Part shown: positions 1 to 25,372 of the stretch, one piece after another
Position numbering within the stretch: the stretch's first letter is position 1
How the letters are laid out: each line of letters begins with the position of its first letter
Source of the DNA: Candidatus Saccharimonadota bacterium
GTDB lineage: Bacteria; Patescibacteriota; Gracilibacteria; BD1-5; UBA6164
DNA: 32,000 nt
Direction: 5' to 3'
Assembly (NCBI GenBank): GCA_965227835.1
Contig: OZ245768.1
Coordinates: 270,001-302,000 of the forward strand
Notes under the pieces: model-generated
Databases searched by the model: none
Told to the model about the DNA's origin: nothing
Seen by the model: the letters and a program-made list of their open reading frames with translations, nothing else
Position numbers and translations under genes: made by a program

Positions 1-541
1 TTTATTTTATAATCCCAAACCTCTTATGAAATGATTATATGAAAAAATGTGTACTAAGCAAGGAGTAGAATCAGCAAGAATCCTCGCGAGGTCGATACTT
101 GAAGAAAACAAAGGAAACGTAAGTAAAACAGCTTATATATTATGATGTTCTCGTAAAACAGTAAGAAGAAGTAGAGATGGTCCTATAGAAAATATATCAA
201 GAGCTCCTAAGACTCCTCATAATAAAAAAACATCTTCTGATTTAGAATGACTTGTATTACAAGAACGAAATAAAACAAAATATTGAAGAGTACGTCTAGC
301 AAAGTATTTATTCCTCAGATATGGAATAACATTCTCTTCCTCTACTATATGAAATATACTAAAAAGAAACAAAGTAAAAAAGCATCATTATTCTCGTAGA
401 AAATGAGATAGTAAACCTCTATACGATTATCAAAATATTCTTCCCTTTGAGTATGGTCAAGTAGATACAAAGCATATAGAAGATTTTGAAGCTTTATGAG
501 AACTTTGTTTTATACTAAGAAAATATAATCTTCCTTTATAT

Positions 542-757
542 CTCAAAACTACCCACTTTTTATAAAAAGTATACCTATATTTTACTTTAAATAAAGGGAA
601 ATTAAGCTATTTTTAATGTTTTATCTTTAGTATTTTATAAATGACTTATTTAAGCTAACTTTATCTTTATAAAATTCAATCAATATAAAATCTATGTTTT
701 TACTTATATAAAGGTAAAAAATAAAATATAAAATACAAAAAACTGGGTAGATTTGAG
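542..757. mobile_element. 216-bp non-autonomous MITE derived from the IS at 894-2178
   Basis: The termini are ctcaaaactacccacttttt ... aaaaactgggtagatttgag, an inverted repeat that shares its first ~26 bp and last ~20 bp with the 1285-bp IS. It is flanked by the 6-bp direct duplication ttatat (536-541 and 758-763). The uninterrupted copy at 23095-23100 has a single ttatat. There is no ORF inside. Confidence 0.9.
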
Positions 758-893
758 TTATATCAATGGACATATATATGTGCTAAAACAAAATATAAAT
801 TTATAGCTTATTCTCATAGTCTTTCTTCTGAATTTGGTCTTATGTTTATACTTACTATAGCTACATATCTTAGGAGTATGTGAATATATTATC

Positions 894-2178
894 CTCAAAA
901 CTACCCACTTTTTATAAAATCGACATATGAGAATAAGGATAACTGAGGGAAATGTAGGTTGTTTTTATTATTTAAATTTTTAATATGTTTTTTAGGAGGT
1001 TTATACAACTTTGTTAAACAATAAGATATAAATTTAACAATAGAATTAGAATTCATAGTTATTCATCGAGATTTTGTATAATCTCTAAATCTAGATTTAA
1101 ATCTAGAAGAAAGTATAAACCTCTGATTCTCACAAAAAGAATTATTCTTTTTATATATAGTCCTAGTCAAAGCCATAGCCAACTGTATAGTAGAAACAAA
1201 ATTTTTAAATACTATTAAACTCTTAGCTTGAAGTTTCTCAAGCTGAAACTCCTGCTTCATAGTTTTAAATATTGTCTCTATTTCCCGTCTTTGTTTATAT
1301 TCTTCTATATCTGTTTTTCTTGAATTTGATAATATCCTCATTGGTTCAGGAAATTTAGGATTTGATTTAATATGAAGATATATTGATTCATTAACTGAAT
1401 TAATTCTTACCTTATGAACTCAATCTTTAAATTCCTTTAATTTCAAATATTTATTGGTTTTTAAATCAAAATATATCCTATTCTTTTTAGCTCTTATTAT
1501 CCATCTATTTACACTATTATTTAAAAACTCTATATATGATGCTATATCATATCAAGCATCATATACATATATTCACTTTCATTTAGTATAATCTTCTACT
1601 TTTTTAATTAATTTTCAAAAATATTCAGATTTAAATTTATTAGTTAAATCTTCATACTCAAGTATTACAGGAATTCAATTTATACTTACTCAATGATACA
1701 TATATCAAGAAACTATATTTCAAGTACTTCAATCTCTTACTTTAGATAAATTTTCTAGCTTCTTTGAGTATTGTTTTGCTATATCAACTTCATCAAAAAC
1801 TATATAATCATTTTTATTTATTTTTCATAACATAGAAAAACATCTTTTTTCTACTTTTAGGTTAAAATTTTTAAAACTATCTTTTTCAAAGAAATGTTTT
1901 ATTTTTTCACTCATTTTGTTAGGATTTTTATATTTTCAAAATCATAATTTGTTCATTATTGTTGTTCTTAGCTTTATTATATCTCAAAAAAACTCTTTAA
2001 TAAATCTTTTATCATTTTTGCATTCATATTTCATTAAATATCATAGTTCTTTGTTTATTATTTTTTGTATTTCTTGCATAAAAAAAAGTAATAATAATAT
2101 ATTACTTCAATTATTAGATTATCCCCTCTGTCAAGCTTTTTTTAGACTTTTTTATTAAAAAAACTGGGGAGTTTTGAG
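894..2178 (-). mobile_element. Autonomous IS of the IS4/IS5 superfamily (DDE_Tnp_1 type), 1285 bp, nested inside the IS481-like element
   Basis: The terminal inverted repeats are ctcaaaactacccacttttt (894-) and aaaaactggggagttttgag (-2178). The 6-bp target duplication attatc sits at 888-893 and 2179-2184, and the empty site is present once at 23225-23230. It carries one transposase gene. Confidence 0.9.
1063..2079 (-). CDS. DDE transposase, IS4/IS5 superfamily (338 aa under code 25)
   Basis: The frame is open for 339 codons with TGA=Gly. The exact Y(2)R(3)E(6)K signature is present in YKQRREIETIFKTMK. Candidate DDE aspartates lie in FDEVDIAK / VRDGSTG and YVYDAGYD. The track ORF 1063..1341 is its C-terminal fragment. 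The start at 2079 is in frame with the Met at 1914. Confidence 0.85.
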
Positions 2179-2669
2179 ATTATCATATGGAATTTCAATG
2201 AGATAATGGCCCTGCTGATTTTTGTGGATGAAGTAAGAGAAAGGAAAATCAGTGGAATGCTATATTAAATAATATAAATTGCTGTTTTAAGAGTATTCCT
2301 GCTTGAAAAAAATATCTTCAATGAATTGTAGAGAGATCTCATAGAACTGATGATGAAGAATTATATAGACCTTATCTTGATCGCATGAAATCTCTTCCTA
2401 ATTTTTTAAACTATAGTAGTAAATATATTTATACTTATAATAATTATAGACCTTCTTTTTGAATAGGTATGAACGGTTTAAGTCCTATTGAAAAACTTAG
2501 AAGTTGTAATATAATTCTTCCTACAAAATTTAATAATTTCCCTGTCCTTATCCTAGATAATCTTGCTAAAATTGGTGGTACCTATCTAAAGGACCATTAC
2601 CTTTCTTGATTTTTTTAAATAGAATTTAGAAAAATAATAAAAAATTATATTTTAATTGAAATTTATAGC

Positions 2670-13879: not shown

Positions 13880-13883
13880 AAAA

Positions 13884-13979
13884 AAGAAAAATTTATTACA
13901 AGAGCAAAGAGCTAAAACCCTTTGTTGATAAAAGAAAAATTTCTTACAATAGCAGAGAGCTGAAGCTCTCTGTTGATAA
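13884..13979. repeat. Two tandem ~48-bp units: AAGAAAAATTTCTTACAA-hairpin-TGTTGATAA
   Basis: Unit 1 is ...gaaaaatttattacaagagcaaagagctaaaaccctttgttgataa. Unit 2 is aagaaaaatttcttacaatagcagagagctgaagctctctgttgataa, with stem cagagagc/gctctctg. On the minus strand they lie directly after the hrpA stop and are each followed by a T-rich run, so they probably also act as its terminator. A third copy is at 18294-18345. Confidence 0.75.
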
Positions 13980-13985
13980 TGAATT

Positions 13986-16900
13986 TTAATTAATTCTTTT
14001 AATTTCTTCAAGGCAAGAACTATATTCAGCTACTCTTTGTTCTAATCATTCTATAAGTAATTCCATAACAGAAATATCTTCTAGTGAATTAAGTTCATCT
14101 TTATAGTTTTTATAATTCTCAATATAGAAAAGCAAATCTTCATATTTGGATATAAGAATGGCTTTTTTTATTATTTTTTCATCTTTTATTTTTGAAAAAG
14201 AAGATTTTAGGATAAATTTTATTATTATTTGTTTCACTCATACCCTCTTATTAATACTATCCCTAACTATATCTAAACTAAGGTTAAAAATCTTTGGATA
14301 TAAAACACTATTATAATAATCTAAATCAAAAAAATCTATAAAAAGCTTATTTATAAACTTATTTAAATCTCTCAAAAAAGGTATTGACTCTAAATTTATA
14401 TAAGATAGCTCTTTTGATATTTCTTTCTCTAAATTATTTTTAATTTTTTGTAATTCAGGGATGAAGCTCTCAAACCTTTTTATTCAAACAGATTTTTTTT
14501 CTAGATTTCCAGATGAAACCAATTCAATTGCTTCAAAGAAGTACTTTCTTTTTTGTTCATCAAAATACTTAAATTTATAAAAAGCTCTCATCAAATTCTC
14601 ATCAAACACAAAATCATCTTTTTCTAATTTTTCTATATTTCAAATAATATTTAGTACAAAAGATGTTCTCTTTTGTAATTTAGATAAATTTTTCTTTCTT
14701 GTAGTCATTTGACCCATATTTCTCAAAACTTCTTGCAAAAACAAAGATTTTCTTTTCTCCAACTTATCCAAATGCTTTTTACTTACAAGTTCTTCATTAA
14801 TACTTAATAAAATATCTTGTATATTTTGTCTAGTTATACTATCTAAAATATTTTTATAACAATTTTCTAGCTTTTCGTAAAAAGGATGCATTTCAATATT
14901 TTCAAAATGTCTATTTAGTATTTCTTTTTTTAATTCATCTACACTAACTAATTCATTTGAGCTTATTTTACCTAAAATTCTTAAATAATTCTTTTTTAAT
15001 TCTATAAATTTTTTTGTGTTTGATTCATTTTGATCTTCGCAGTAAATCTCTGGAACTTCAACTTTTTCTGCAACTCATTTATAATCCAAAGAAGAAAAAT
15101 CCACATCTTTTCACGATAAAAACTTTCTTATAAAAGGATCTTCACTATTTAAGAAATTGCTTAAAATCAGGGAATCATGTTTGAATCTCCTTTCGGTATT
15201 TGCTATACTATATGGTTGTATTCTGTGTTTCTCTTCTTCCAATATAAACCTTTTCAAAAGCTCTCTAAAAGTATAAATATATTTTTCATTTCTTCATTTC
15301 AAGAATTTCTTTATTTTTAAGTTATGTGCTATCAAAAAATCAGGTAGACAGTATTTTAGATAATAATCCAAAGCATTATAATTTGTATTAAATGAATTAC
15401 AGTTTATTTTATGTGAATATACCTCCAAAGCACTAGAATAATTTTTTATAGCAGTTTCTAAATTTAGTCTATCAAAATCAATATTCAATCCACTTATATC
15501 TTTTTTCTTCAAAAGATGCTTAAAAGGCTTTATATCTTCTTCTTGTATCTTTTCTAAAAATGTTAAGATATTTAAATCAGATTTGCTTCCGTCTCATCAT
15601 ATAATAAAAGGTGTAGCTATATATAAAGCCTTATCTTCTTTTTTTACAATACTTACATCTCAAGATATAAATTTCAACAAGCATTTTTTATTATATTTAC
15701 TCCTAAAGGTATTGCTTTTTTTATTATAAAGATAAATATTATGAAGATTTCAAGAAACAAGACACATCTTTTTATCATACTCGCTTCAGCTTTCTAATAA
15801 TTTTATTCCAAGTTCATTAAGTCTATTTATAAGTATTTCTATAGTATTTTGTATTTCTTCTATTTTTTTATTCTTTATTCAAACAGGATATAAATCAACT
15901 ATTTCAAAAAGCATATATTTTCAATCAAAACTACAAAAATTGTTTAATTCATCTTTGTCTATTCATAAATCTAAAAGTTCTTTTATTTTTAATTTATTTA
16001 GTCTTCTTGATTTTACAAGATTAAATAATTCTAGGTAGTAGAATAAATCAGAATTTTTATCTCTTTTTATGTTTATCTTTTTCCATTTTCAAGATTTTGA
16101 TAAAAATCATCATTTTTCAATTATTGAGACTATTAGTAAAATATCCTTGCTACATCATCTTTTTATTGATTCTAAAAGAATTCTTGAATTATAAACTCAA
16201 AGGGGGAATATAACAAGTTCTCTACCGAGTTTAGTTATTTTGTTTTTAAAGTCTAAAGCTCATATCTCATATAGTCTTTCATATGCCAAATTCAAAAGAT
16301 TTTCGGATACATTATGAAAAAATAGTTTTTCTCATACTTTTTTTGATTTTTTGTATTCCTTTTTTACGTCAAACCCATTAGTCATCATCACAAGTATATA
16401 TCTTTCAAGCATTTCTCTCTCTATAGGAGATTCTGGAAACTCCCCTAATTTTTCAAAATCAGTATTATTTGCTCTTATGTATTCACCCTTATGTGTTCTA
16501 CCAGCTCTACCAGCTCTTTGAATACAATTAGCTTTGTTTATATTTTCTATTCTAAGTTCTTGTATTCAAAAATCATTAGTTCTTACAATTTTGTGAGTTC
16601 ACAAATCAACTACCAAATCTATATAATCTATTGTTATACTTTCTTCTGCTATATTTGTAGATACAATTATTCTTGTTTCTCACTGACTTTTTGTTAAAAG
16701 TTTTTGTTGTTCTTCTTTAGGTAAATCTGAGTGTAGGGGATAAATACCATTTTTACTTCATATACTTTTTGATAGTGAATCTATAGTTTCTTCTATTTCT
16801 TTTTTTCAAGGTGCAAAAACCAATATATTTTTGCCTTTTTTATATGCTCCTGAAATAGTTTTTATATATCAATTTTGCTTGTTATAATATTTATCTACTT

Positions 16901-17549
16901 CATGTGTTCTACCAGGTATTTTTAAAACAGGTATATTTGAGCTGATATTTTTGAAATATTGTTGAAATATGTTTGGATCTAGAGTTGCTGACATTATTAT
17001 AATTTTAGACTTCACTTTATATTTATGCATCATTGCAATAAATTCTGTTGATATAGAAAAATTATGTACTTCATCTAAAATCAACAATTCTGGAAATCTG
17101 TTTGAAACAAACTGTCTCATTAACTCCAAAGCATCAGTATGAAAAGATATTTTTGATATTTTATTAGAGCTATTTCATTGTCATGTTCTATATCAGACTT
17201 TGTATCCCAAAGAAAATCTAGGATCTCAGCTATCTGCTAGAAATTCTTTAGAAACTCTATCTGAATTGCTTATAGCAGCTAATACTCTAGGTTGAGTAAC
17301 AATTATTCTTTTGTAATCATTTATAAGCATTTTAGGCACCTGAGTTGTCTTTCCACTTCAAGTTTCTCATTGTATTATTGTAATCATACTTTCTTTAACA
17401 CATTCTCTTATATCATCCTTCATACTTGTTGCAGGAAGTGTTTCAACGGTTTCAATGATTTTAAGCCTGCCATCTAAACTCATCTTATTTCAATACATAT
17501 CAACTACTGATCAGTCTTTTTGTTCTCAAGGTGTTAATAAATTTTCCAT
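13986..17549 (-). CDS. hrpA: ATP-dependent DEAH-box RNA helicase, HrpA-like (1187 aa)
   Basis: It spans 1188 codons, and four track ORFs (14046.., 14640.., 15294.., 16869..) fall in this one frame. Walker A is GETGSGKTTQVP (17343-17372, two Gly are TGA). Other motifs are DEVH, SATLD, IPGRTHEV, TNIAEESITI and QRAGRAGR, followed by an HA2/OB-like region and a long C-terminal extension as in HrpA. Confidence 0.9.
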
Positions 17550-18411: not shown

Positions 18412-18525
18412 ATAGGTAAAAACTTTACTGATTTTTTTACCTACAAACGAGATAGGTAAAATTTTTTGCTTTTTTTTTACCTATAAATAAGATAGGTAAA
18501 AAATTTTATCTTTTTTTTACCTATA
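18412..18525 (+). promoter_or_regulatory. Three tandem ~34-bp palindromes (ATAGGTAAAA-N-TTTTACCTAT) ending 4 nt before the fic start codon
   Basis: P1 (18412-18444) is ataggtaaaaactttactgatttttttacctac. P2 (18452-18485) is ataggtaaaattttttgctttttttttacctat. P3 (18492-18525) is ataggtaaaaaattttatcttttttttacctat. The period is about 40 bp. Confidence 0.7.
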
Positions 18526-18529
18526 AAAA

Positions 18530-19621
18530 ATGATTAATACCAAACCTTACAATGATTTGCCTCTTTTACCTTTTTGTTTTCAAGATTTTATGACAAATGA
18601 GGTTTATAAAAAGGTTATTAAAACAAATAAAGAATTAGCTAGATTAAACGGTATAGAGCAAATGAACAATAGGAAAATATCTTCAATTTTTCTAAATTCA
18701 CTTGTTTTAACTGAATCTATAGATTCAAATATTATTGAAAATATAAATACTACTATAGATAGTGTTGCTTTATCTAATGCTATAAAAAATATAAAATGAA
18801 ATGAAAAAGAGACTATTAGATATAAAGAAGCTATGATTTATGGTTTGGAAGAAATGAGATCAAAAAATAATCTATTATCAACTAATATCATTGTTTGAAT
18901 TCAAGAAAAAATTGAAGAAAATTCTGCTTGAGTTAGAAAAGTACCTTGAACTAAATTGAAAAATGAAAAAACTTGAGAAATAGTTTATTATCCACCATAT
19001 CCAAATTTTTTAGATAAGCTATTAAATAATCTTGAAAAGTATATAAATGATGAAAATATTCATGAAATAGATGACTGTATCAAAGCTTCTGTGATACATT
19101 ATCAATTTGAATCTATTCATCCTTTTTTAGATTGAAATTGAAGGACTTGAAGGATATTAATTCTTTTATATTTAATTAAAAGATGACTTTTAAATTTTCC
19201 AATATTGTATGTTTCATGATATATAAACCAAAATAAGTCTGATTATTATAGGCTTTTACAAGAGGTAAGAACCAAAAATAATTGGGAGGGTTATATATTG
19301 TATATGTTGGATGCTATAGAAAAGCAATCAAAAGCTACATGAGATAAGATTTTGAAAATAAATAGTCTTTATAAAAGCAAATTAGAGAATTTTAAAAAAA
19401 GCTCTGATTTGCCTTGAGTAGATACCTTGTGTGATTTACTATTTCAAGAGATATATATTACATTTTGAGAAATTCTCAAAAATCTACAAGTAAGTAAACC
19501 TACTTTGATAAAAAAATTAAATGAACTTGAAAATTTAGGTTTGGTAAACAAGATTAAAGACTGAAAAAATACGATATATTTTTTATGAGAATATTTAGAG
19601 ATTCTTAAAAATAACTGATAA
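18530..19621 (+). CDS. fic: Fic family protein (class II, AMPylase-type) with a C-terminal winged-helix-like domain (363 aa)
   Basis: The Fic core HPFLDGNGRTGR lies at 19118-19153, and all three Gly are TGA. The N-terminal inhibitory-helix motif [S/T]xxxE[G/N] appears as SNIIEN (18725-18742) within TESIDSNIIENI. The C-terminal LQVSKPTLIKKLNELENLGLV is HTH-like. The stop is TAA at 19619-19621. Confidence 0.92.
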
Positions 19622-19631
19622 TTTTAGATAA

Positions 19632-19672
19632 ATAGAAAGCCCCATAAATCTTAGATTTATGGGGCTTTCTAT
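19632..19672. terminator. Bidirectional terminator hairpin between fic and the convergent repeat-protein paralog
   Basis: agaaagccccataaatct / agatttatggggctttct is an 18-bp perfect stem with T-rich sequence on the + side. Confidence 0.7.
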
Positions 19673-19708
19673 TTTGAAGCAATTTTTTTATATTATTATA
19701 TATAAATT

Positions 19709-20091
19709 TTACTCATTCTCTCCTTCTATTTTTTTCAGTAATTCAGGCATTTTTTCTCTAACATCACTTACATCAAATCCATTTTCCTCAGCCTCTTTAA
19801 CTTTTTTTTCAAGAATATCATAAGAGCTTTTAAATAAAAATTTTTCAGTTCCAGACAGAGCTTCTCTAATCTCTTTACGAAGTACTTTTTCAAATAATTC
19901 AGGCATTTGTTTTTTTACTCTATCTATGTCAATATCGAGTTTATCTTCTATTACTATTCTAACTTCATCAGCAACATCATCATAAAGATGTCTACTTAAT
20001 TTTTTTTAGCAAGAGAGAACTTTTTATTAATAATTTTAGAAGCTACGTGTAATGCCTCACTAGAACACATATGATTAGGAGTACGACCCAT
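19709..20091 (-). pseudogene. Single-repeat paralog of the 52-aa-repeat protein, frameshifted at a homopolymer
   Basis: The ATG at 20091 opens a 31-codon ORF that stops at 19996-19998. The downstream frame encodes ...LYDDVADEVRIVIEDKLDIDIDRVKKQMPELFEKVLRKEIREALSGTEKFLFKSSYDILEKKVKEAEENGFDVSDVREKMPELLKKIEGENE. The two frames meet at T8 (20000-20007), and one extra T would give a continuous 127-aa ORF. The 53-bp 5' leader is near-identical to that of 21109..22386. Confidence 0.75.
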
Positions 20092-20258
20092 AATAAATTT
20101 AAATTAAAAATTAAACTAACAATGATATGTTATCATATATAATTAATCCAACACTAAACCACCAGCTCTGCTGGTGCGAGTAGTGGAGGTTTTACCGTTC
20201 CGGTAGTTGTGTATAATCTTCTAGGAAGCACCTAGGAGGGGAATAACTTTTTAAAGAT

Positions 20259-20918
20259 ATGTCCCACAAATACACAAAGCAGTCCCATGTGAATTGGGAC
20301 TGCATTTACCACATAGTGGTGGTACCAAAGTACCGAAAAAAAATACTTTTTCAATCAGTTAGAAAAGATATACGAGACACATTTCATGAACTTGCAAAGA
20401 GATATGATTTTGAGATATTAAAATGAAATATAACGATAGATCATGTTCATCTCGTTTTGAGGATATCTCCAAAATACTCTGTTGCAGAAATTCTGTGAAG
20501 ATTGAAATGAAAGAGTGCAATAATACTTCATAACAAACATAGTAAGAAGAAATGACTGTACTCGAAGAATTTCTGGAGTAGATGATACTATGTAAGTACC
20601 TCAAAACTACCCACTTTTTATAAAAAGTATACCTATATTTTACTTTAAATAAAGGGAAATTAAGCTATTTTTAGTGTTTTATCTTTAGTATTTTATAAAT
20701 GACTTATTTAAGCTAACTTTATCTTTATAAAATTCAATCAATATAAAATCTCTGTTTTTACTTATATAAAGGTAAAAAATAAAATATAAAATACAAAAAA
20801 CTGGGTAGATTTAAGAAGTACAGTTTGACTTGACTTGGATATGATAAAAAATTATGTTCAACATCAGCAACATAAGGATAAAACCATTGATGGAAATCAG
20901 TTAGATTTAAACTGGTAA
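20259..20918 (+). pseudogene. tnpA: IS200-type Y1 (HUH) transposase TnpA, interrupted by the MITE
   Basis: The N-terminal part is MSHKYTKQSHVNWDCIYHIVVVPKYRKKIL...ITIDHVHLVLRISPKYSVAEILGRLKGKSA...FWSRGYYVST. It carries the HUH motif as HVH and the catalytic-Tyr region as SRGYYVST. After the MITE and its target duplication the frame resumes as VGLDLDMIKNYVQHQQHKDKTIDGNQLDLNW, ending at TAA 20916-20918. The restored length is 145 aa. Confidence 0.88.
20600..20815. mobile_element. Second copy of the 216-bp MITE
   Basis: It is near-identical to 542-757, with a handful of substitutions. The 6-bp target duplication aagtac sits at 20594-20599 and 20816-20821. Removing the element and one duplicate restores the tnpA codons gta agt aca gtt (VSTV). 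Confidence 0.9.
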
Positions 20919-21108
20919 AAACTATTTTAGCCCCTTCTAGGGGCTTCCATTTAAAGCTACCAGTTCTACTGGTAGATATTTACTATTTGTGTCAAAATTT
21001 CTCTTCAAAAAAATAAAGCTTTGATATTTGAAAAATAATTTTTTCCCGAAGTAAGAAATGAAGTACAATTAATAGAGAAGAAAATATAGTATTCCCCGTA
21101 GGGTAATA

Positions 21109-22386
21109 TTATTTATTCCTTTCTTCTATTTTTTTAAGTAATTCAGGCATTTGTTTTTCAACATCGCTTACATCAACTTTATTTTCTTTAGCTTCTCTAA
21201 CACTATTTTCTAAAACATCATAAGAAGACTTACATAGTCTTTTTTTAGTATCAGCTAAACTTTCATCGACTTCATTGCGAAGAACTTTTTTAAGTAATTC
21301 AGGCATTTGTTTTTCAACATCGCTTACATCAACTTTATTTTCTTTAGCTTCTCTAACACTATTTTCTAAAACATCATAAGAAGACTTACATAGTCTTTTT
21401 TTAGTATCAGCTAAACTTTCATCGACTTCATTGCGAAGAACTTTTTTAAGTAATTCAGGCATTTGTTTTTCAACATCATCTACATTAACTCCACCTTCTT
21501 CTGCTTCTCTAATATTAATTACTAAGAAATCATAGAAAACTTTACTCAAACTTTTTTTAGTATCAGCCAAACTTTCATCAACTTCATTACGAAGAACTTT
21601 TTTCAATAATTCAGGCATTTTTTCTTTCACATCACCTACATTAACTCCACCTTTTTCAGCTTCTTTGATACTAATTAATAAATTATTATAAGAACTTTTA
21701 TTCAAATTCTCTTTTGCATCAGCCAAACTTTCATCAACTTCATTACGAAGAACTTTTTTCAATAATTCAGGCATTTTTTCTTTCACATCACCTACATTAA
21801 CTCCACCTTTTTCAGCTTCTTTGATACTAATTAATAAATTATTATAAGAACTTTTATTCAAATTCTCTTTTGCATCAGCTGAATTTTCATCAACTTCATT
21901 GCGAAGAACTTTTTTAAGTAATTCAGGCATTTGTTTTTCAACATCGCTTACATCAACTTCATTTTCTTTAGCTTCTCTAATATCATTCTTTAAAAAATTA
22001 TAAGAAATTTTACTCAAACTCTTTTCAGTTCTATCTAAACTTTCATCAACTTCATTGCGAAGAACTTTTTTAAGTAATTCAGGCATTTGTTTTTCAACAT
22101 CGCTTACATCAACTTCATTTTCTTTAGCTTCTCTAATATCATTCTTTAAAAAATTATAAGAAATTTTACTCAAACTCTTTTCAGTTCTATCTAAACTTTC
22201 ATCAACTTCATTGCGAAGAACTTTTTTAAGTAATTCAGGCATTTGTTTTTCAATGTGTTTTACATTCATCTTATTTTTTACAGCTGATTTAACATAATTA
22301 ACAAGCTCATCATAAGAATATTTATATAAATGTCTTTCAGTATAAGATAATCTATCTTCAATATTTCTAATAAAACTATCACCCAT
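21109..22386 (-). CDS. Tandem-repeat protein of unknown function: seven 52-aa charged helical repeats (425 aa)
   Basis: This is the only long ORF intact in the standard-code track. The repeat consensus is MPELLKKVLRNEVDESLxxTxKxLxKxSYxxLxxxIxEAxExxVxVxDVEKQ. There is no signal peptide or hydrophobic segment. I recognised no family. Confidence 0.85.
   Translation of the reverse strand: MGDSFIRNIEDRLSYTERHLYKYSYDELVNYVKSAVKNKMNVKHIEKQMPELLKKVLRNEVDESLDRTEKSLSKISYNFLKNDIREAKENEVDVSDVEKQMPELLKKVLRNEVDESLDRTEKSLSKISYNFLKNDIREAKENEVDVSDVEKQMPELLKKVLRNEVDENSADAKENLNKSSYNNLLISIKEAEKGGVNVGDVKEKMPELLKKVLRNEVDESLADAKENLNKSSYNNLLISIKEAEKGGVNVGDVKEKMPELLKKVLRNEVDESLADTKKSLSKVFYDFLVINIREAEEGGVNVDDVEKQMPELLKKVLRNEVDESLADTKKRLCKSSYDVLENSVREAKENKVDVSDVEKQMPELLKKVLRNEVDESLADTKKRLCKSSYDVLENSVREAKENKVDVSDVEKQMPELLKKIEERNK
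21130..22253 (-). repeat. 156-bp tandem repeat array, 7.2 units, inside the CDS
   Basis: The complement of the MPELL Met codon ends at 21150, 21306, 21462, 21618, 21774, 21930, 22086 and 22242. These positions are exactly 156 nt apart. By protein sequence the units fall into types ordered D-D-C-B'-B-A-A along the + strand. The two A units and the two D units are each identical to one another, and B and B' differ at two residues. Confidence 0.95.
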
Positions 22387-22470
22387 AATAAATTTAAATT
22401 AAAAATTAAATTAACAATGATATGTTATAATATATAATTATTTTTATCAAAGTTTCTCTTCAAAAAAATA

Positions 22471-23655
22471 TTATCTGTACCAGTAGATAGGTACCACTAT
22501 TTATTGATATGGAATTGTGTAAAAAAGAGGATGAGGATATAATAGATTTTGTAAAAAATTTTATTTTATAATCCCAAACCTCTTATGAAATGATTATATG
22601 AAAAAATGTGTACTAAGCAAGGAGTAGAATCAGCAAGAATCCTCGCGAGGTCGATACTTGAAGAAAACAAAGGAAACGTAAGTAAAACAGCTTATATATT
22701 ATGATGTTCTCGTAAAACAGTAAGAAGAAGTAGAGATGGTCCTATAGAAAATATATCAAGAGCTCCTAAGACTCCTCATAATAAAAAAACATCTTCTGAT
22801 TTAGAATGACTTGTATTACAAGAACGAAATAAAACAAAATATTGAAGAGTACGTCTAGCAAAGTATTTATTCCTCAGATATGGAATAACATTCTCTTCCT
22901 CTACTATATGAAATATACTAAAAAGAAACAAAGTAAAAAAGCATCATTATTCTCGTAGAAAATGAGATAGTAAACCTCTATACGATTATCAAAATATTCT
23001 TCCCTTTGAGTATGGTCAAGTAGATACAAAGCATATAGAAGATTTTGAAGCTTTATGAGAACTTTGTTTTATACTAAGAAAATATAATCTTCCTTTATAT
23101 CAATGGACATATATATGTGCTAAAACAAAATATAAATTTATAGCTTATTCTCATAGTCTTTCTTCTGAATTTGGTCTTATGTTTATACTTACTATAGCTA
23201 CATATCTTAGGAGTATGTGAATATATTATCATATGGAATTTCAATGAGATAATGGCCCTGCTGATTTTTGTGGATGAAGTAAGAGAAAGGAAAATCAGTG
23301 GAATGCTATATTAAATAATATAAATTGCTGTTTTAAGAGTATTCCTGCTTGAAAAAAATATCTTCAATGAATTGTAGAGAGATCTCATAGAACTGATGAT
23401 GAAGAATTATATAGACCTTATCTTGATCGCATGAAATCTCTTCCTAATTTTTTAAACCATAGTAGTAAATATATTTATACTTATAATAATTATAGACCTT
23501 CTTTTTGAATAGGTATGAACGGTTTAAGTCCTATTGAAAAACTTAGAAGTTGTAATATAATTCTTCCTACAAAATTTAATAATTTCCCTGTCCTTATCCT
23601 AGATAATCTTGCTAAAATTGGTGGTACCTATCTAAAGGACCATTACCTTTCTTGA
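22471..23655 (+). mobile_element. IS481-like insertion sequence, copy 2 (intact); the left boundary is approximate
   Basis: Positions 22560-23655 match copy 1. A 14-bp inverted repeat is present: tagataggtaccac at 22484-22497 and gtggtacctatcta at 23624-23637. The whole insertion is bracketed between 22470 and 23680, because the paralogous upstream region (21013-21022) has only aagctt there. Confidence 0.75.
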
Positions 23656-23676
23656 AACTTTTTCCAAAAAATCTAA
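22585..23676 (+). CDS. IS481-like DDE (rve integrase core) transposase (363 aa)
   Basis: The N-terminal HTH-like region is ARILARSILEENKGNVSKTAYILGCSRKTVRR. The DDE triad context is QVDTKHI, FQGDNGPADF and VERSHRTDDEELY. There are 15+ in-frame TGA codons. The ORF passes the TGA at the element terminus (23653-23655) and stops at TAA 23674-23676 in flanking DNA. Confidence 0.88.
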
Positions 23677-23746
23677 ATCTGATATTTGAAAAATCAATTT
23701 TCTTTATTAATATAAAATCCAGCAATAAATCTTAATTTTAAAAAAA

Positions 23747-25372
23747 TTGAAAACATCAGACTTATTTGTAAAAATCCTTGAAAAAAAAGGAGTAGAAACT
23801 ATTTATTGAGTGCCTTGAGAGGAAAATCTAGATTTGCTTGATTCTATATGAAAATCCAAAATAGAACTAATACTAACTAGAAACGAGCAAACAGCAGTTT
23901 TTATGGCAGCCAACTATGGTAGATTTACTTGAAAACCATGAGTGGCTCTAGCTACCCTATGACCATGAGCAACAAATATGATGACCTGAATAGCCTATGC
24001 TCAGCTTGGATGAATGCCTATAATTGCTATAACATGACAAAAACCCCAAAATAAATCAAAACAATGACAATTCCAAATAATAGACATAGTATCTATGATG
24101 AAACCTATAAGCAAATACTGTATTAGTATAGTTTCTTGAAATAGAGTACCATATATACTTGAAAATGCCTTTAAAATAGCAGAAGAAGAAAAACCTTGAG
24201 CCGTGGTTATAGAACTCCCAGAAGATATAGCATGAGAAGTTGTTAGTGAAAACTTTAGTATAATAGACCTAAAAACAGAAAAACAAAGACGACCAGTAAT
24301 AGATGATAAATGATTGAAAAACCTAATATCTGAATTAGAAAATGCTAAATCTCCTGTAATACTTATATGAGCATGAGCTAATAGAAAAAGAATCACTAAA
24401 TACCTAACAAAATTTATATACAAATACAATATACCTTTTTTTAGCTCACAAATGTGAAAGTGAGTAGTTGATGAAAGAAGTGAGCAATATATAGGAACGG
24501 CTGCTTTGACATCTTGAGATTATATACACAATTGTCTAAAAGAATCTGATCTTATAATATCTGTTTGATACGACGTAGTAGAAAAACCAACAGAAATACT
24601 TGGTATAAATGGGACAAAACTTATAAACATAAACTTTTTTTCCTCATACTATGATTATGTTTATAGTCCCTATTTAGATGTAGTATGAGATATAGCCAAT
24701 ATCTTTTGGTCTCTTTGTCAGCAAGAAATTGATTCATCTTGATGGGATTTTTCTAAAATATATGAAATTAACAAAAAAAATAAGGCACAAATAGAGGAAA
24801 ATATCAAACTTGAAGATAAGTTTTCTTATATGATGCCTAGAAGACTTTGTAAAGAATTGAGAAAATACCTGTGAGAAGATGATATACTTACACTTGATAA
24901 TTGACTTTACAAAGTATGGATAGCAAGAAACTATCCAGCCTATATGCCAAATACTTTGGTTTTAGATAATGCACTAGCAACTATGTGAGCCTGATATTCT
25001 TCAGCTATGGAAGCTAAAAGACTTAATCCAAATAAAAAAGTAGTGTGTGTTACCTGAGATTGATGACTTATAATGAATCTTTGAGATTTAGAAACAGCAG
25101 TTAGATTAAATCTAGATTTGGTAATAATAGTCCTAAACAATAATTCCTACTGAATGATAAAATGGAAACAAGAATGAGCTTGATTAAAAAAGTTTTGATT
25201 AGATTTTAAAAATCCAGATTTTGTAAAACTAGCTGAAAGTTTTGGAGCTAGATGAATAAGAATAGAAGATAAAAATGATTTCTGACCTGTATTAAAAGAT
25301 ATTTTAAGCAAAAAGGGCATCTCTATAATTGACTTGCGATTCTCATATCCTCAGGATACAGGAATCATTTAA
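23747..25372 (+). CDS. Thiamine-diphosphate enzyme, acetolactate synthase-like (541 aa)
   Basis: Motifs are [49 protein letters not shown], and the ThDP motif TGDGGLIMN...NNNSYGMI (TGDGG at 25052-25066, three Gly are TGA). The putative start is TTG at 23747, and no in-frame ATG lies between the upstream TAA and this point. The standard-code ORF 24001..24429 (-) is antisense to it. Confidence 0.88.

Follow-up and report, generated by a model that had tools for sequence, protein, structure and literature searches.

A rare alpha-helical repeat family, and recent unit duplications in one member from a bacterium that reads UGA as glycine

The window analysed here is a stretch of 32,000 nucleotides. 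Judged from its coding sequence, the host bacterium uses genetic code 25, in which UGA encodes glycine: TGA codons stand at the invariant glycines of a Walker A motif (GETGSGKT), a Fic motif (HPFLDGNGRTGR), an ABC signature (LSGGERQR) and a TPP motif (GDGG). Open reading frames of at least 100 aa number 27 with table 25/4 and only 2 with table 11. Code 25 is known from CPR lineages such as Gracilibacteria and Absconditabacteria. One of the two table 11 frames is the repeat gene described below, which has no TGA codon. The features of the locus are as follows.

19709–20091, minus strand: two-unit paralogue ('gene a'), about 1 kb from the repeat gene and with the same start and 5′ region.
20000–20007, minus strand: A8 homopolymer, read directly from the sequence, at which the paralogue frame breaks.
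20146–20983, plus strand: IS200-like element, with approximate boundaries and a Y1 transposase gene at 20259–20648.
21109–21150, minus strand: C-terminal cap MPELLKKIEERNK and stop codon; the cap is equivalent to the start of the long helix of a ninth unit.
21130–21477, no strand assigned: D-D tract of perfect tandem duplication (identical over 192 nt when shifted by 156).
21151–22242, minus strand: seven complete units of 156 nt (52 aa), arranged A, A, B, B′, C, D, D.
21562–21879, no strand assigned: B-B tract of perfect tandem duplication (identical over 162 nt when shifted by 156; its register lies 57 nt away from that of the MPELL start).
21885–22253, no strand assigned: A-A tract of perfect tandem duplication (identical over 213 nt when shifted by 156).
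22243–22386, minus strand: N-terminal degenerate unit, codons 1–48 (MGDSFIRNIEDRLSYTERHLYKYSYDELVNYVKSAVKNKMNVKHIEKQ), which aligns with the other units.
22387–22470, minus strand: 5′ region of the repeat gene, common to the paralogue.
22471–23661, plus strand: insertion sequence with an rve-type transposase (22585–23676), 85 nt upstream of the start codon of the repeat gene.

The frame at 21109–22386 on the minus strand is a genuine protein-coding gene. It stays open for 1,278 nt (425 aa) in DNA of 25% GC, and its product is identical to database protein P0001. Tandem Repeats Finder reports a period of 156 with 7.2 copies (score 1365) at 21130–22253. Just as the earlier note described, eight MPELL motifs recur exactly 52 aa (156 nt) apart, at residues 49, 101 and so on to 413, with ATG codons from 22242 and 22086 down to 21150. 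That note counted seven repeats. The seven full units stand, and the 48-aa N-terminus must be added as a degenerate eighth. The four C-terminal sequence types it distinguished (A, B, C and D) are borne out by comparison of the units. It was also right that the protein lacks a signal peptide and a transmembrane segment (Kyte-Doolittle hydropathy is at most 0.45 in every 19-residue window) and that it is highly charged (41% charged residues, pI 5.3, net charge about −11). An Rfam search of the locus found nothing.

The array carries the marks of very recent unit-by-unit duplication, as had been proposed. When it is shifted by 156 nt, three perfect identity runs of 192, 162 and 213 nt appear; perfect repeats of this length at a fixed offset cannot arise by chance, and all three duplications are therefore exact. 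Units 1 and 2 are identical, as are units 6 and 7 (0 of 156 nt different in each case). Units 3 and 4 (B and B′) differ by 6 nt and 2 aa, a difference that is only apparent because the B duplication sits in the offset register. The ancestral array, an older N-unit followed by A, B, C, D and the cap, has thus grown very recently through three independent tandem duplications, each perfect and one unit long. These probably arose by unequal recombination or replication slippage between the 50–60-nt sequences that all unit boundaries share without a mismatch.

The neighbouring paralogue records an earlier event. Its downstream frame holds a degenerate unit, one full unit and the cap MPELLKKIEGENE, and its last 65 aa correspond to public annotation P0015. 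With A9 in place of A8, or after a −1 slip on A_AAA_AAT, its frame would be intact. The upstream regions of the two genes correspond in two blocks, 22381–22440 with 20086–20145 (97% match) and 22439–22470 with 20984–21015 (91%). A weak promoter-like site (TTGATA-17-TAACAT) lies at 22450–22422; promoter and terminator scans are uninformative in such AT-rich DNA. The IS200-like element interrupts the upstream region of the paralogue. The rve-type element has a second copy at window positions 1–2609, and we infer its left boundary from an empty-site-like sequence at 20984–21043. The whole gene with its promoter region was duplicated in tandem before the unit expansions; one copy has since been frameshifted, and a different insertion sequence has landed in each of the two upstream regions.

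The earlier note called the protein an orphan. This is refuted by the paralogue in the same window and by at least 75 protein clusters that match the unit profile. The family was revealed by an exhaustive HMMER search of 1.84 billion representatives with a profile of 17 units from independent proteins: 75 clusters matched at E ≤ 1e-3, and 31 of these at E ≤ 1e-10. Profiles A1 and A5 yielded almost nothing extra in word-indexed homology searches. The repeat protein is thus placed in a rare and so far unnamed alpha-helical repeat family whose core reads Y..L...I..AK..G[VI]DVSDIE.Q[ML]PELLKK; eight domains of the protein match the family HMM. Members have 1–8 units each, with a modal period of 52 aa, and many of them are encoded in other organisms where UGA means glycine. 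This has a practical consequence. In the homologue P0002, the 'W' at the conserved glycine represents TGA codons; the family's glycine appears as tryptophan in public protein sets because UGA has been read with code 4 rather than code 25. Such mistranslation degrades family profiles and needs correction.

The conserved core of the unit (P2, L4, K6, R10, E12, L17, Y29, L32, I36, A39, G43, V44, D45, V46, S47 and E50) is present in most units of the window protein. The exceptions are G43, which is E or K in types A and D; L17, which S replaces in unit 3, the first of the B units; and D45, S47 and E50, which differ between unit types. Positions that are invariant in the window protein are also the less variable ones across the family, with an entropy of 2.00 bits compared with 2.79 at the variable positions (p = 0.002). 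Recent unit duplication is not peculiar to this locus: adjacent units are 70–85% identical in P0005, P0009, P0016, P0017, P0032 and P0077.

Wider searches added little. Among species-representative genomes the sole match was a glycosyltransferase that contains QMPELLKK, a false positive; a scan of metagenome contigs matched one short contig, which is P0014; neither the IMG/VR scan nor tblastn against phage and plasmid collections found a relative; and a literature search for the motif found nothing published. The neighbourhoods of five other homologue loci have no conserved partner gene, so context offers no functional clue. Genes with a role in translation (Pth, HflX, S15) do lie next to some loci, but in small genomes chance alone would produce such proximity, and no weight was put on it.

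That the protein matches no recognised family was confirmed. We scanned the window protein, its 71 family members or both against Pfam, NCBIfam and PHROGs, and searched PADLOC and PDB sequences as well, with no meaningful match for the family. The only Pfam match above cut-off, TPR_HPS5_insect (39.9 bits), sums four short stretches that all fall on one hairpin of the profile, at positions ~96–136 of 184, and it is absent from the Pfam matches of the 71 members. An ATP-grasp_2 match was likewise not meaningful. The RelB/ParD antitoxin model NF050811 scores 35.7 bits summed over the repeats, compared with the 60 bits and the ~80-aa protein that it requires; it is matched by none of the 71 members, and no RelE/ParE-like gene adjoins. 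HEPN_IX from PADLOC gives a 22-bit match for P0001 and none for four relatives. Every PHROGs family is matched by at most 2 of the 71. The protein does not belong to the TPR, Sel1, HEAT or ARM repeats, having no full-repeat profile match and a period of 52 aa rather than 34–47.

The predicted fold is clear. AlphaFold2 models the full-length protein as all helices (pLDDT 96.2, pTM 0.75) and a single unit as three helices (pLDDT 90.5); with high confidence, the model describes a continuous all-helical solenoid. Each predicted unit consists of a 29-residue helix, a 16-residue helix and a 5-residue loop. The long helix would run ..S-D-I-E-x-Q-M-P-E-L-L-K-K-V-L-R-x-E-V.. and the short helix S-Y-x-x-L-x-x-x-I-x-x-A-K-x-x-G, followed by the V-D-V loop. 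The conserved residues of the short helix (Y29, L32, I36 and A39) follow an i, i+3, i+7, i+10 spacing. One unit and the start of the next would together form a three-helix bundle, and tandem units would share helices and stack as a solenoid. The Foldseek comparison that the earlier note recommended gave no significant structural match: no hit at E ≤ 1e-3 for the full-length model against PDB and BFVD, or for the unit model against PDB.

Conserved residues appear to form a buried stripe and helix caps, with variable residues mostly on the helix surfaces. A conserved scaffold with a variable face, as first proposed, is consistent with the solenoid model and with the entropy values. The implied analogy to modular binders of the code type is not supported, as the protein is acidic and its variation diffuse: 27 of the 52 unit positions vary within it, core and buried positions included.

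Our preferred explanation is that this is a gene in a code-25 bacterium, encoding a member of a rare helical repeat family, recently lengthened by unit duplications, with a putative role as a scaffold. As a whole we give it a probability of about 50%. Its structural and evolutionary part is very probable. The functional part is tentative: the product may be a cytoplasmic protein-binding scaffold or adaptor, whose length and valency would change with unit number.

Five family members carry N-terminal hydrophobic segments resembling signal peptides, so the module is not confined to the cytoplasm. They lend some weight to a different reading, in which the units resemble the three-helix modules of Staphylococcus aureus and the protein is a secreted or host-directed binder, a multivalent effector of an episymbiotic or predatory bacterium. 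The unit profile's best PDB sequence match is indeed SPIN (E = 0.003 over 27 residues, GLHSIKDIINKAKQDGFDVSKYE; not significant), and the NCBIfam SPIN model NF033694 is matched by 3 of the 71 members (best E = 1.6e-4), none of which reaches the NCBIfam cut-off. With Foldseek the unit model comes closest to Sbi-IV and Efb-C (TM 0.5–0.7), at E ≥ 1.8 and a probability of at most 0.54, and small helical bundles match one another generically. The three-helix bundle of SPIN is the part that binds myeloperoxidase (PMC9948029). However, all of these likenesses fall below significance; neither a signal peptide nor a hydrophobic segment is present in the window protein or in P0002 and P0003, which are close to it; and the full-length model is a solenoid of shared helices, not a string of separate beads. 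We consider host-directed binding improbable. We view in the same light a broader proposal, that the 52-aa unit is a module with which reduced episymbiotic or predatory bacteria bind partner or host proteins, present mainly in the UGA-recoded CPR lineages sampled, and that the locus is under rapid adaptive remodelling through duplications, an A-tract gene copy and avoidance of the TGA codon that otherwise dominates for glycine.

The array could also be an artefact of assembly, the true one having a single copy each of A, B and D, or some other copy number, and the identical neighbours resulting from mis-traversal of a repeat graph. The duplicated tracts are perfect over 318–369 bp, longer than typical short reads, so copy number is not verifiable from sequence alone, and one assembly only carries the repeat protein. 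Yet the usual error of assemblers is to collapse tandem repeats, not to expand them, and each duplication creates a novel junction (for example, the 3′ end of A followed by the 5′ variable part of A) that needs reads to support it. Moreover, the 1.49-Mb contig resolves two insertion sequence copies of more than 1.1 kb that are 99.8–100% identical, which suggests long reads or careful finishing and argues that tandem tracts of 318–369 bp are within reach of this assembly. Recently duplicated units in other family members point the same way. We put the chance of an artefact as slim.

Alternatively, the gene may be on its way to decay: a relic in a hot spot for insertion sequences, with neutral slippage duplications and a product that has no present function. 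The setting is suggestive, with a frameshifted paralogue alongside and insertion sequences in both upstream regions, and the Gly43 that the family conserves has been lost from unit types A and D. The substitution pattern can be read in two ways. In 35 of the 52 codons of each unit, pN is 0.18–0.33 and pS 0.26–0.39, a pN/pS of about 0.6–1.2; a ratio near 1 over two thirds of the unit fits relaxed constraint and a variable binding face equally. The N-terminal 17 codons behave differently. They vary synonymously and almost never nonsynonymously (pN 0–0.07, pS 0–0.41), with 4 synonymous-variable and 2 nonsynonymous-variable codons compared with 8 and 25 in the other 35 (Fisher p = 0.06). From this comparison, purifying selection, and not homogenisation alone, appears to act on the N-terminal 17 residues. 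The long open frame in AT-rich DNA, the ~85 nt of upstream sequence still held in common with the paralogue and the very confident AlphaFold2 model likewise speak against decay, which we regard as having little chance of being the answer.

A contingency locus, at which unit number and the paralogue's A-tract would switch often and so vary product length or expression within the population, accords with three independent perfect duplications that have gathered no later mutation, with boundary stretches that are good slippage substrates and with a paralogue frame that hangs on an A8 run. It is a long shot. Unit number is constant in P0002 (seven sequence variants, more than 28 contigs) and in P0003 (two samples), the two other lineages sampled more than once, so rapid length change is not family-wide, and the break at A8 may reflect an error in sequencing the homopolymer or an ordinary pseudogene mutation.

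A modular reader of nucleic acids like the TALE, PPR or PUF proteins, in which a few variable residues of each unit would recognise one base or a short stretch, would suit a helical solenoid with a fixed unit length and nearly invariant and variable segments, but it is very unlikely: a TALE-like code sits poorly with a pI of 5.3 and with variation spread over so many positions, rather than over one or two that set specificity, the period is not 33–36 aa, no TALE, PPR or PUF family appears in the Pfam scans, and Foldseek offers one synthetic PPR (E = 0.49, TM 0.12).

We return, then, to a helical repeat protein with a putative scaffold role. The family has a confident predicted fold and a sharp signature and is absent from Pfam, NCBIfam, PHROGs and PDB, which recommends it for a family entry of its own and for structural study. 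Its unusually regular two-helix unit of 52 residues, with idealised caps, may interest engineers of repeat proteins. The locus itself is an instance of very recent repeat expansion in a small genome, with several insertion sequences in the window. Biological interest is moderate, not exceptional, barring a partner or a role in host interaction; if the unit were a binding module under adaptive remodelling, it would represent a new class of fast-evolving, length-variable interaction protein.

How does the protein compare with known systems? With TALE, PPR and PUF proteins it has in common helical units of fixed length that join a near-invariant part to a variable one. It departs from them in its acidity, its diffuse variation and its period, and has no significant sequence or fold match to them.

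Spectrin offers a likeness of architecture: each three-helix bundle passes into the next through one continuous helix, which is part of both. Spectrin repeats, in contrast, are ~106 residues long with three long helices each, and have no sequence or Foldseek match to the window protein.

Protein A is a tandem array of 58-aa helical modules. Its domains, together with SPIN, Efb-C and Sbi-IV, are the staphylococcal binders to set beside the predicted three-helix bundle of ~60 residues that one unit would form with the next helix; the weak local likeness to SPIN concerns its last helix and tail and is not significant. The window protein lacks a signal peptide, a wall anchor and any N-terminal inhibitory region of the SPIN type. 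Its units share helices, whereas staphylococcal modules are separate domains, and its host is an uncultured code-25 bacterium rather than a staphylococcus.

The alpha-solenoids (TPR, Sel1-like, HEAT/ARM and the designed DHRs) are likewise built from tandem helix-turn-helix units with a conserved buried stripe, conserved caps and a variable surface. The best whole-protein Foldseek matches are of this kind, namely designed repeats (8cwy, 5h7c DHR14 and 5cwm DHR64) and TPR/Sel1 proteins, all at E ≥ 1.2e-3 and TM ≤ 0.2. Known alpha-solenoid families have periods of 34–47 aa, whereas the window protein has a period of 52 aa, very unequal helices (29 and 16 residues) and, in AKxxG-VDVSDIE-xQMPELLKK, a motif that is its family's own.

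The repeat gene belongs to a family of helical-repeat proteins, and its array has grown recently by exact duplication of single units. The gene lies among the following features:

13986-17549, minus: DEAH-type helicase gene (1187 aa)
18530-19621, plus: Fic/DOC protein gene (Fic_N, Fic and C-terminal winged-helix)
19709-20091, minus, as the repeat gene: two-unit paralogue, the second family gene
~20146-20983: IS200-like element, upstream of the paralogue, splitting the shared upstream sequence
21109-22386, minus: repeat gene ORF (425 aa)
~22471-23661: rve-type IS, 85 nt upstream of the repeat gene, splitting the shared upstream sequence
23735-25372, plus: TPP-dependent enzyme gene, acetolactate-synthase-like

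The translated ORF contains eight MPELL motifs spaced exactly 52 residues apart, as an earlier note had stated, and Tandem Repeats Finder recovers the corresponding period (156 nt, 7.2 copies, score 1365). That note counted seven repeats. There are indeed seven full units (A, A, B, B', C, D, D), but the first 48 residues add a degenerate eighth, and the family HMM counts eight domains. A 13-residue C-terminal cap has the same sequence as the beginning of a unit. Units 1 and 2, and likewise 6 and 7, are the same across 156 nt, where the note had claimed identity at the protein level; units 3 and 4 differ at 6 nt. The paired neighbours share 100, 96 and 100% identity. The two-residue difference reported between B and B' is present, but it is a register effect: the duplicated block spans codon 20 to codon 19 of the next unit, and the B duplication is itself perfect.

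Compared with itself at a 156-nt shift, the gene gives perfect identity runs of 192, 162 (the B duplication) and 213 nt, in keeping with the very recent unit-by-unit duplication proposed earlier. These runs show that an older array of N-unit, units A, B, C and D, and cap has been lengthened by three tandem duplications, each an exact copy of a single unit. Between the four old unit types there are 22-40 differences in 156 nt. Identical boundary sequence flanks the duplicated units; unequal recombination or slippage would naturally act on such sequence and is the likely mechanism of the three duplications. A copy-number error in the assembly has a low probability, because each duplication would need novel junctions, and because the contig spans 1.49 Mb and resolves near-identical IS copies of more than 1.1 kb.

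Each unit of the array has two segments. Over codons 1-17, pN stays at 0-0.07 and pS reaches 0.3-0.4, bearing out the near-invariant N-terminal part that the note described; in the other 35 codons pN is 0.18-0.33 and pS 0.26-0.39. Nonsynonymous and synonymous codon sites number 2 and 4 in the first segment against 25 and 8 in the rest (Fisher p=0.06). Since the invariant segment holds synonymous differences, it appears, on these small numbers, to be kept by selection and not merely homogenised. Positions at which units of this protein differ from one another are also the variable ones of the family as a whole (2.79 versus 2.00 bits, Mann-Whitney p=0.002). That the gene is decaying neutrally in an IS hot spot is given a low probability.

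The earlier note called the protein an orphan, and in this it was wrong. A word-indexed search turned up no more than two relatives, the 256-aa P0002 and the 350-aa P0003, which consist of the same units. Exhaustive scoring of a 17-unit family profile against 1.84 billion representative proteins matched 75 at E<=1e-3, of which 31 also reach E<=1e-10, and there is the paralogue in the window as well. Family members have 1-8 units with a modal period of 52 aa (53-54, 58 or 61 aa in certain subfamilies) and share the core motif Y..L...I..AK..G[VI]DVSDIE.Q[ML]PEL.KK. In most members neighbouring units are divergent (15-50% identity); in a few, adjacent units are 70-85% identical, a sign of recent duplication, and the window protein is the extreme in both adjacent-unit identity and unit number. 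No length variation was found among seven sequence variants of P0002, or between two samples of P0003; that the array is a contingency locus is rated improbable.

Searches of Pfam, NCBIfam, PHROGs and PADLOC with the window protein and 71 members gave only scattered matches, which either were summed over the repeats or involved no more than three members each. The precomputed Pfam list in the database record of the window protein (P0001) gives PF26341.1; P0002 and P0003 have no Pfam match. Phage, plasmid and IMG/VR collections yielded no relatives, and homologues showed no conserved gene neighbourhood. Three members from outside the window (P0020, P0032 and P0046) have a common N-terminal domain of ~60 aa preceding the repeats (G.KAKV...EL.I.L...GKY....VKKGEV.LLDKRK.PE.YPLS), which has no Pfam match and could offer a handle on function.

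The window (25% GC) yields 27 ORFs of 100 aa or longer with UGA as a sense codon against 2 with the standard bacterial code. TGA codons occupy invariant glycines of a helicase Walker A motif (GETGSGKT), of the Walker A motif and LSGGERQR signature of an ABC transporter, of the TPP-enzyme GDGG motif and of the intact Fic motif HPFLDGNGRTGR, where they supply three of the glycines. These placements show that UGA encodes glycine and that the source is a code-25 organism; code 25 occurs in Gracilibacteria and Absconditabacteria. In public sequences of many family members the conserved glycine (AKxxG[IV]DV) appears as tryptophan. All six such residues of P0002 are TGA codons in its DNA (locus L001, 3821-4591), so these members belong to other UGA-recoded organisms and were wrongly translated, with code 4 in place of code 25. 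TGA makes up 353 of 494 Gly codons (71%) in 22 neighbouring genes, with 47% in the lowest single gene. P0002, from another code-25 organism, uses TGA at 6/6 Gly, whereas the repeat gene (0/9) and paralogue (0/3) have none; recent acquisition, an expression-level effect or chance are possible explanations.

The start codon and 60 nt upstream are 97% identical between the paralogue (20086-20145) and the repeat gene (22381-22440), and further shared pieces lie at 20984-21015 and 22439-22470 (91% identity) and at 21004-21043 and 23662-23701 (80%). These shared pieces imply that the gene and its promoter were tandemly duplicated long ago. At the DNA level the paralogue unit has just 76-77% identity to units of the array, so this event is much older than the unit duplications. 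Each upstream region later received a different IS. The paralogue frame is broken at an A8 run (20000-20007); the frame beyond this run codes for a degenerate unit, a single full unit and the cap, and the public annotation covers the paralogue's last 65 aa only (P0015). The two-unit protein would be restored if the run were A9, or by a -1 slip on A_AAA_AAT; a homopolymer sequencing error, a mutation of a pseudogene and slippage during transcription or translation would each explain the break.

A sequence of ~12 nt at both flanks of the rve-type IS may be a target-site duplication. Nested insertions occupy window 1-2609: a second rve-type copy lies in three pieces (1-542, 758-893 and 2179-2609), whose identity to the copy at 22560-23655 is 99.8-100% in each case. 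Two insertions break it up: 216 nt (539-754) matching the right end of the IS200-like element (20597-20812, 98.6% identity) and, at 893-2179, an IS4-like element that carries a DDE_Tnp_1 transposase. Because the TPP-enzyme frame is open for ~55 codons before the first ATG and encodes there the conserved N-terminal TPP-binding segment, the start codon of the gene is probably not ATG and lies shortly after the IS. The Fic/DOC gene and paralogue are convergent, and between them a 45-nt near-perfect palindrome (19630-19674) resembles a terminator acting in both directions; other family loci do not share the Fic neighbour. Tandem repeats also occur directly upstream of the Fic gene (18412-18527, period 40, 2.9 copies) and just past the helicase stop codon (13882-13979, period 48, 2.0 copies).

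With high confidence, the window protein is predicted to be a helical solenoid. AlphaFold2, given the full-length protein and 17 homologues, returned an all-helical model (mean pLDDT 96.2, pTM 0.75) in which each unit has two helices, of 29 and 16 residues, and a loop of 5. A unit-plus-cap model from 70 aligned units has three helices (pLDDT 90.5). As the long helix crosses the unit boundary, adjacent three-helix bundles would share helices in a continuous array. The conserved residues would suit a scaffold: Y29, L32, I36 and A39 would form a stripe at i, i+3, i+7 and i+10, G43 would cap the short helix, and S-D-I-E would be an N-capping box, with a proline early in the long helix.

The protein is acidic (pI 5.3) and, as noted earlier, highly charged (41% of residues) and free of transmembrane segments; its maximum hydropathy is 0.45, with no hydrophobic segment, and five family members have N-terminal hydrophobic segments. 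We infer that the protein is soluble and would act as a scaffold or adaptor for other proteins, longer or shorter according to its number of units; the architecture is that of a scaffold, the function putative. A nucleic-acid code of the TALE or PPR kind is unlikely, because the protein is acidic, its variation diffuse and its period 52 aa.

Foldseek, one of the checks proposed in the note, gave no significant match for the whole-protein or the unit model. The best whole-protein matches, without significance, were designed helical repeat proteins and TPR/Sel1 proteins (TM<=0.2). Those of the unit were the Staphylococcus aureus three-helix bundles Sbi-IV and Efb-C (TM 0.5-0.7 but E>=1.8), and among PDB sequences the unit profile best matched the final helix and the tail of SPIN (E=0.003, 27 residues), whose three-helix bundle is the part that binds myeloperoxidase (PMC9948029). 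We treat the SPIN likeness as a lead and not as evidence of homology, and a host-directed binder of the SPIN, Efb or protein A kind has a low probability. The earlier note's observation is borne out and its reading is half right: the architecture is scaffold-like and, in place of an orphan, there is a new, unnamed helical-repeat family with recent local expansion, among the alpha-solenoid repeat proteins.
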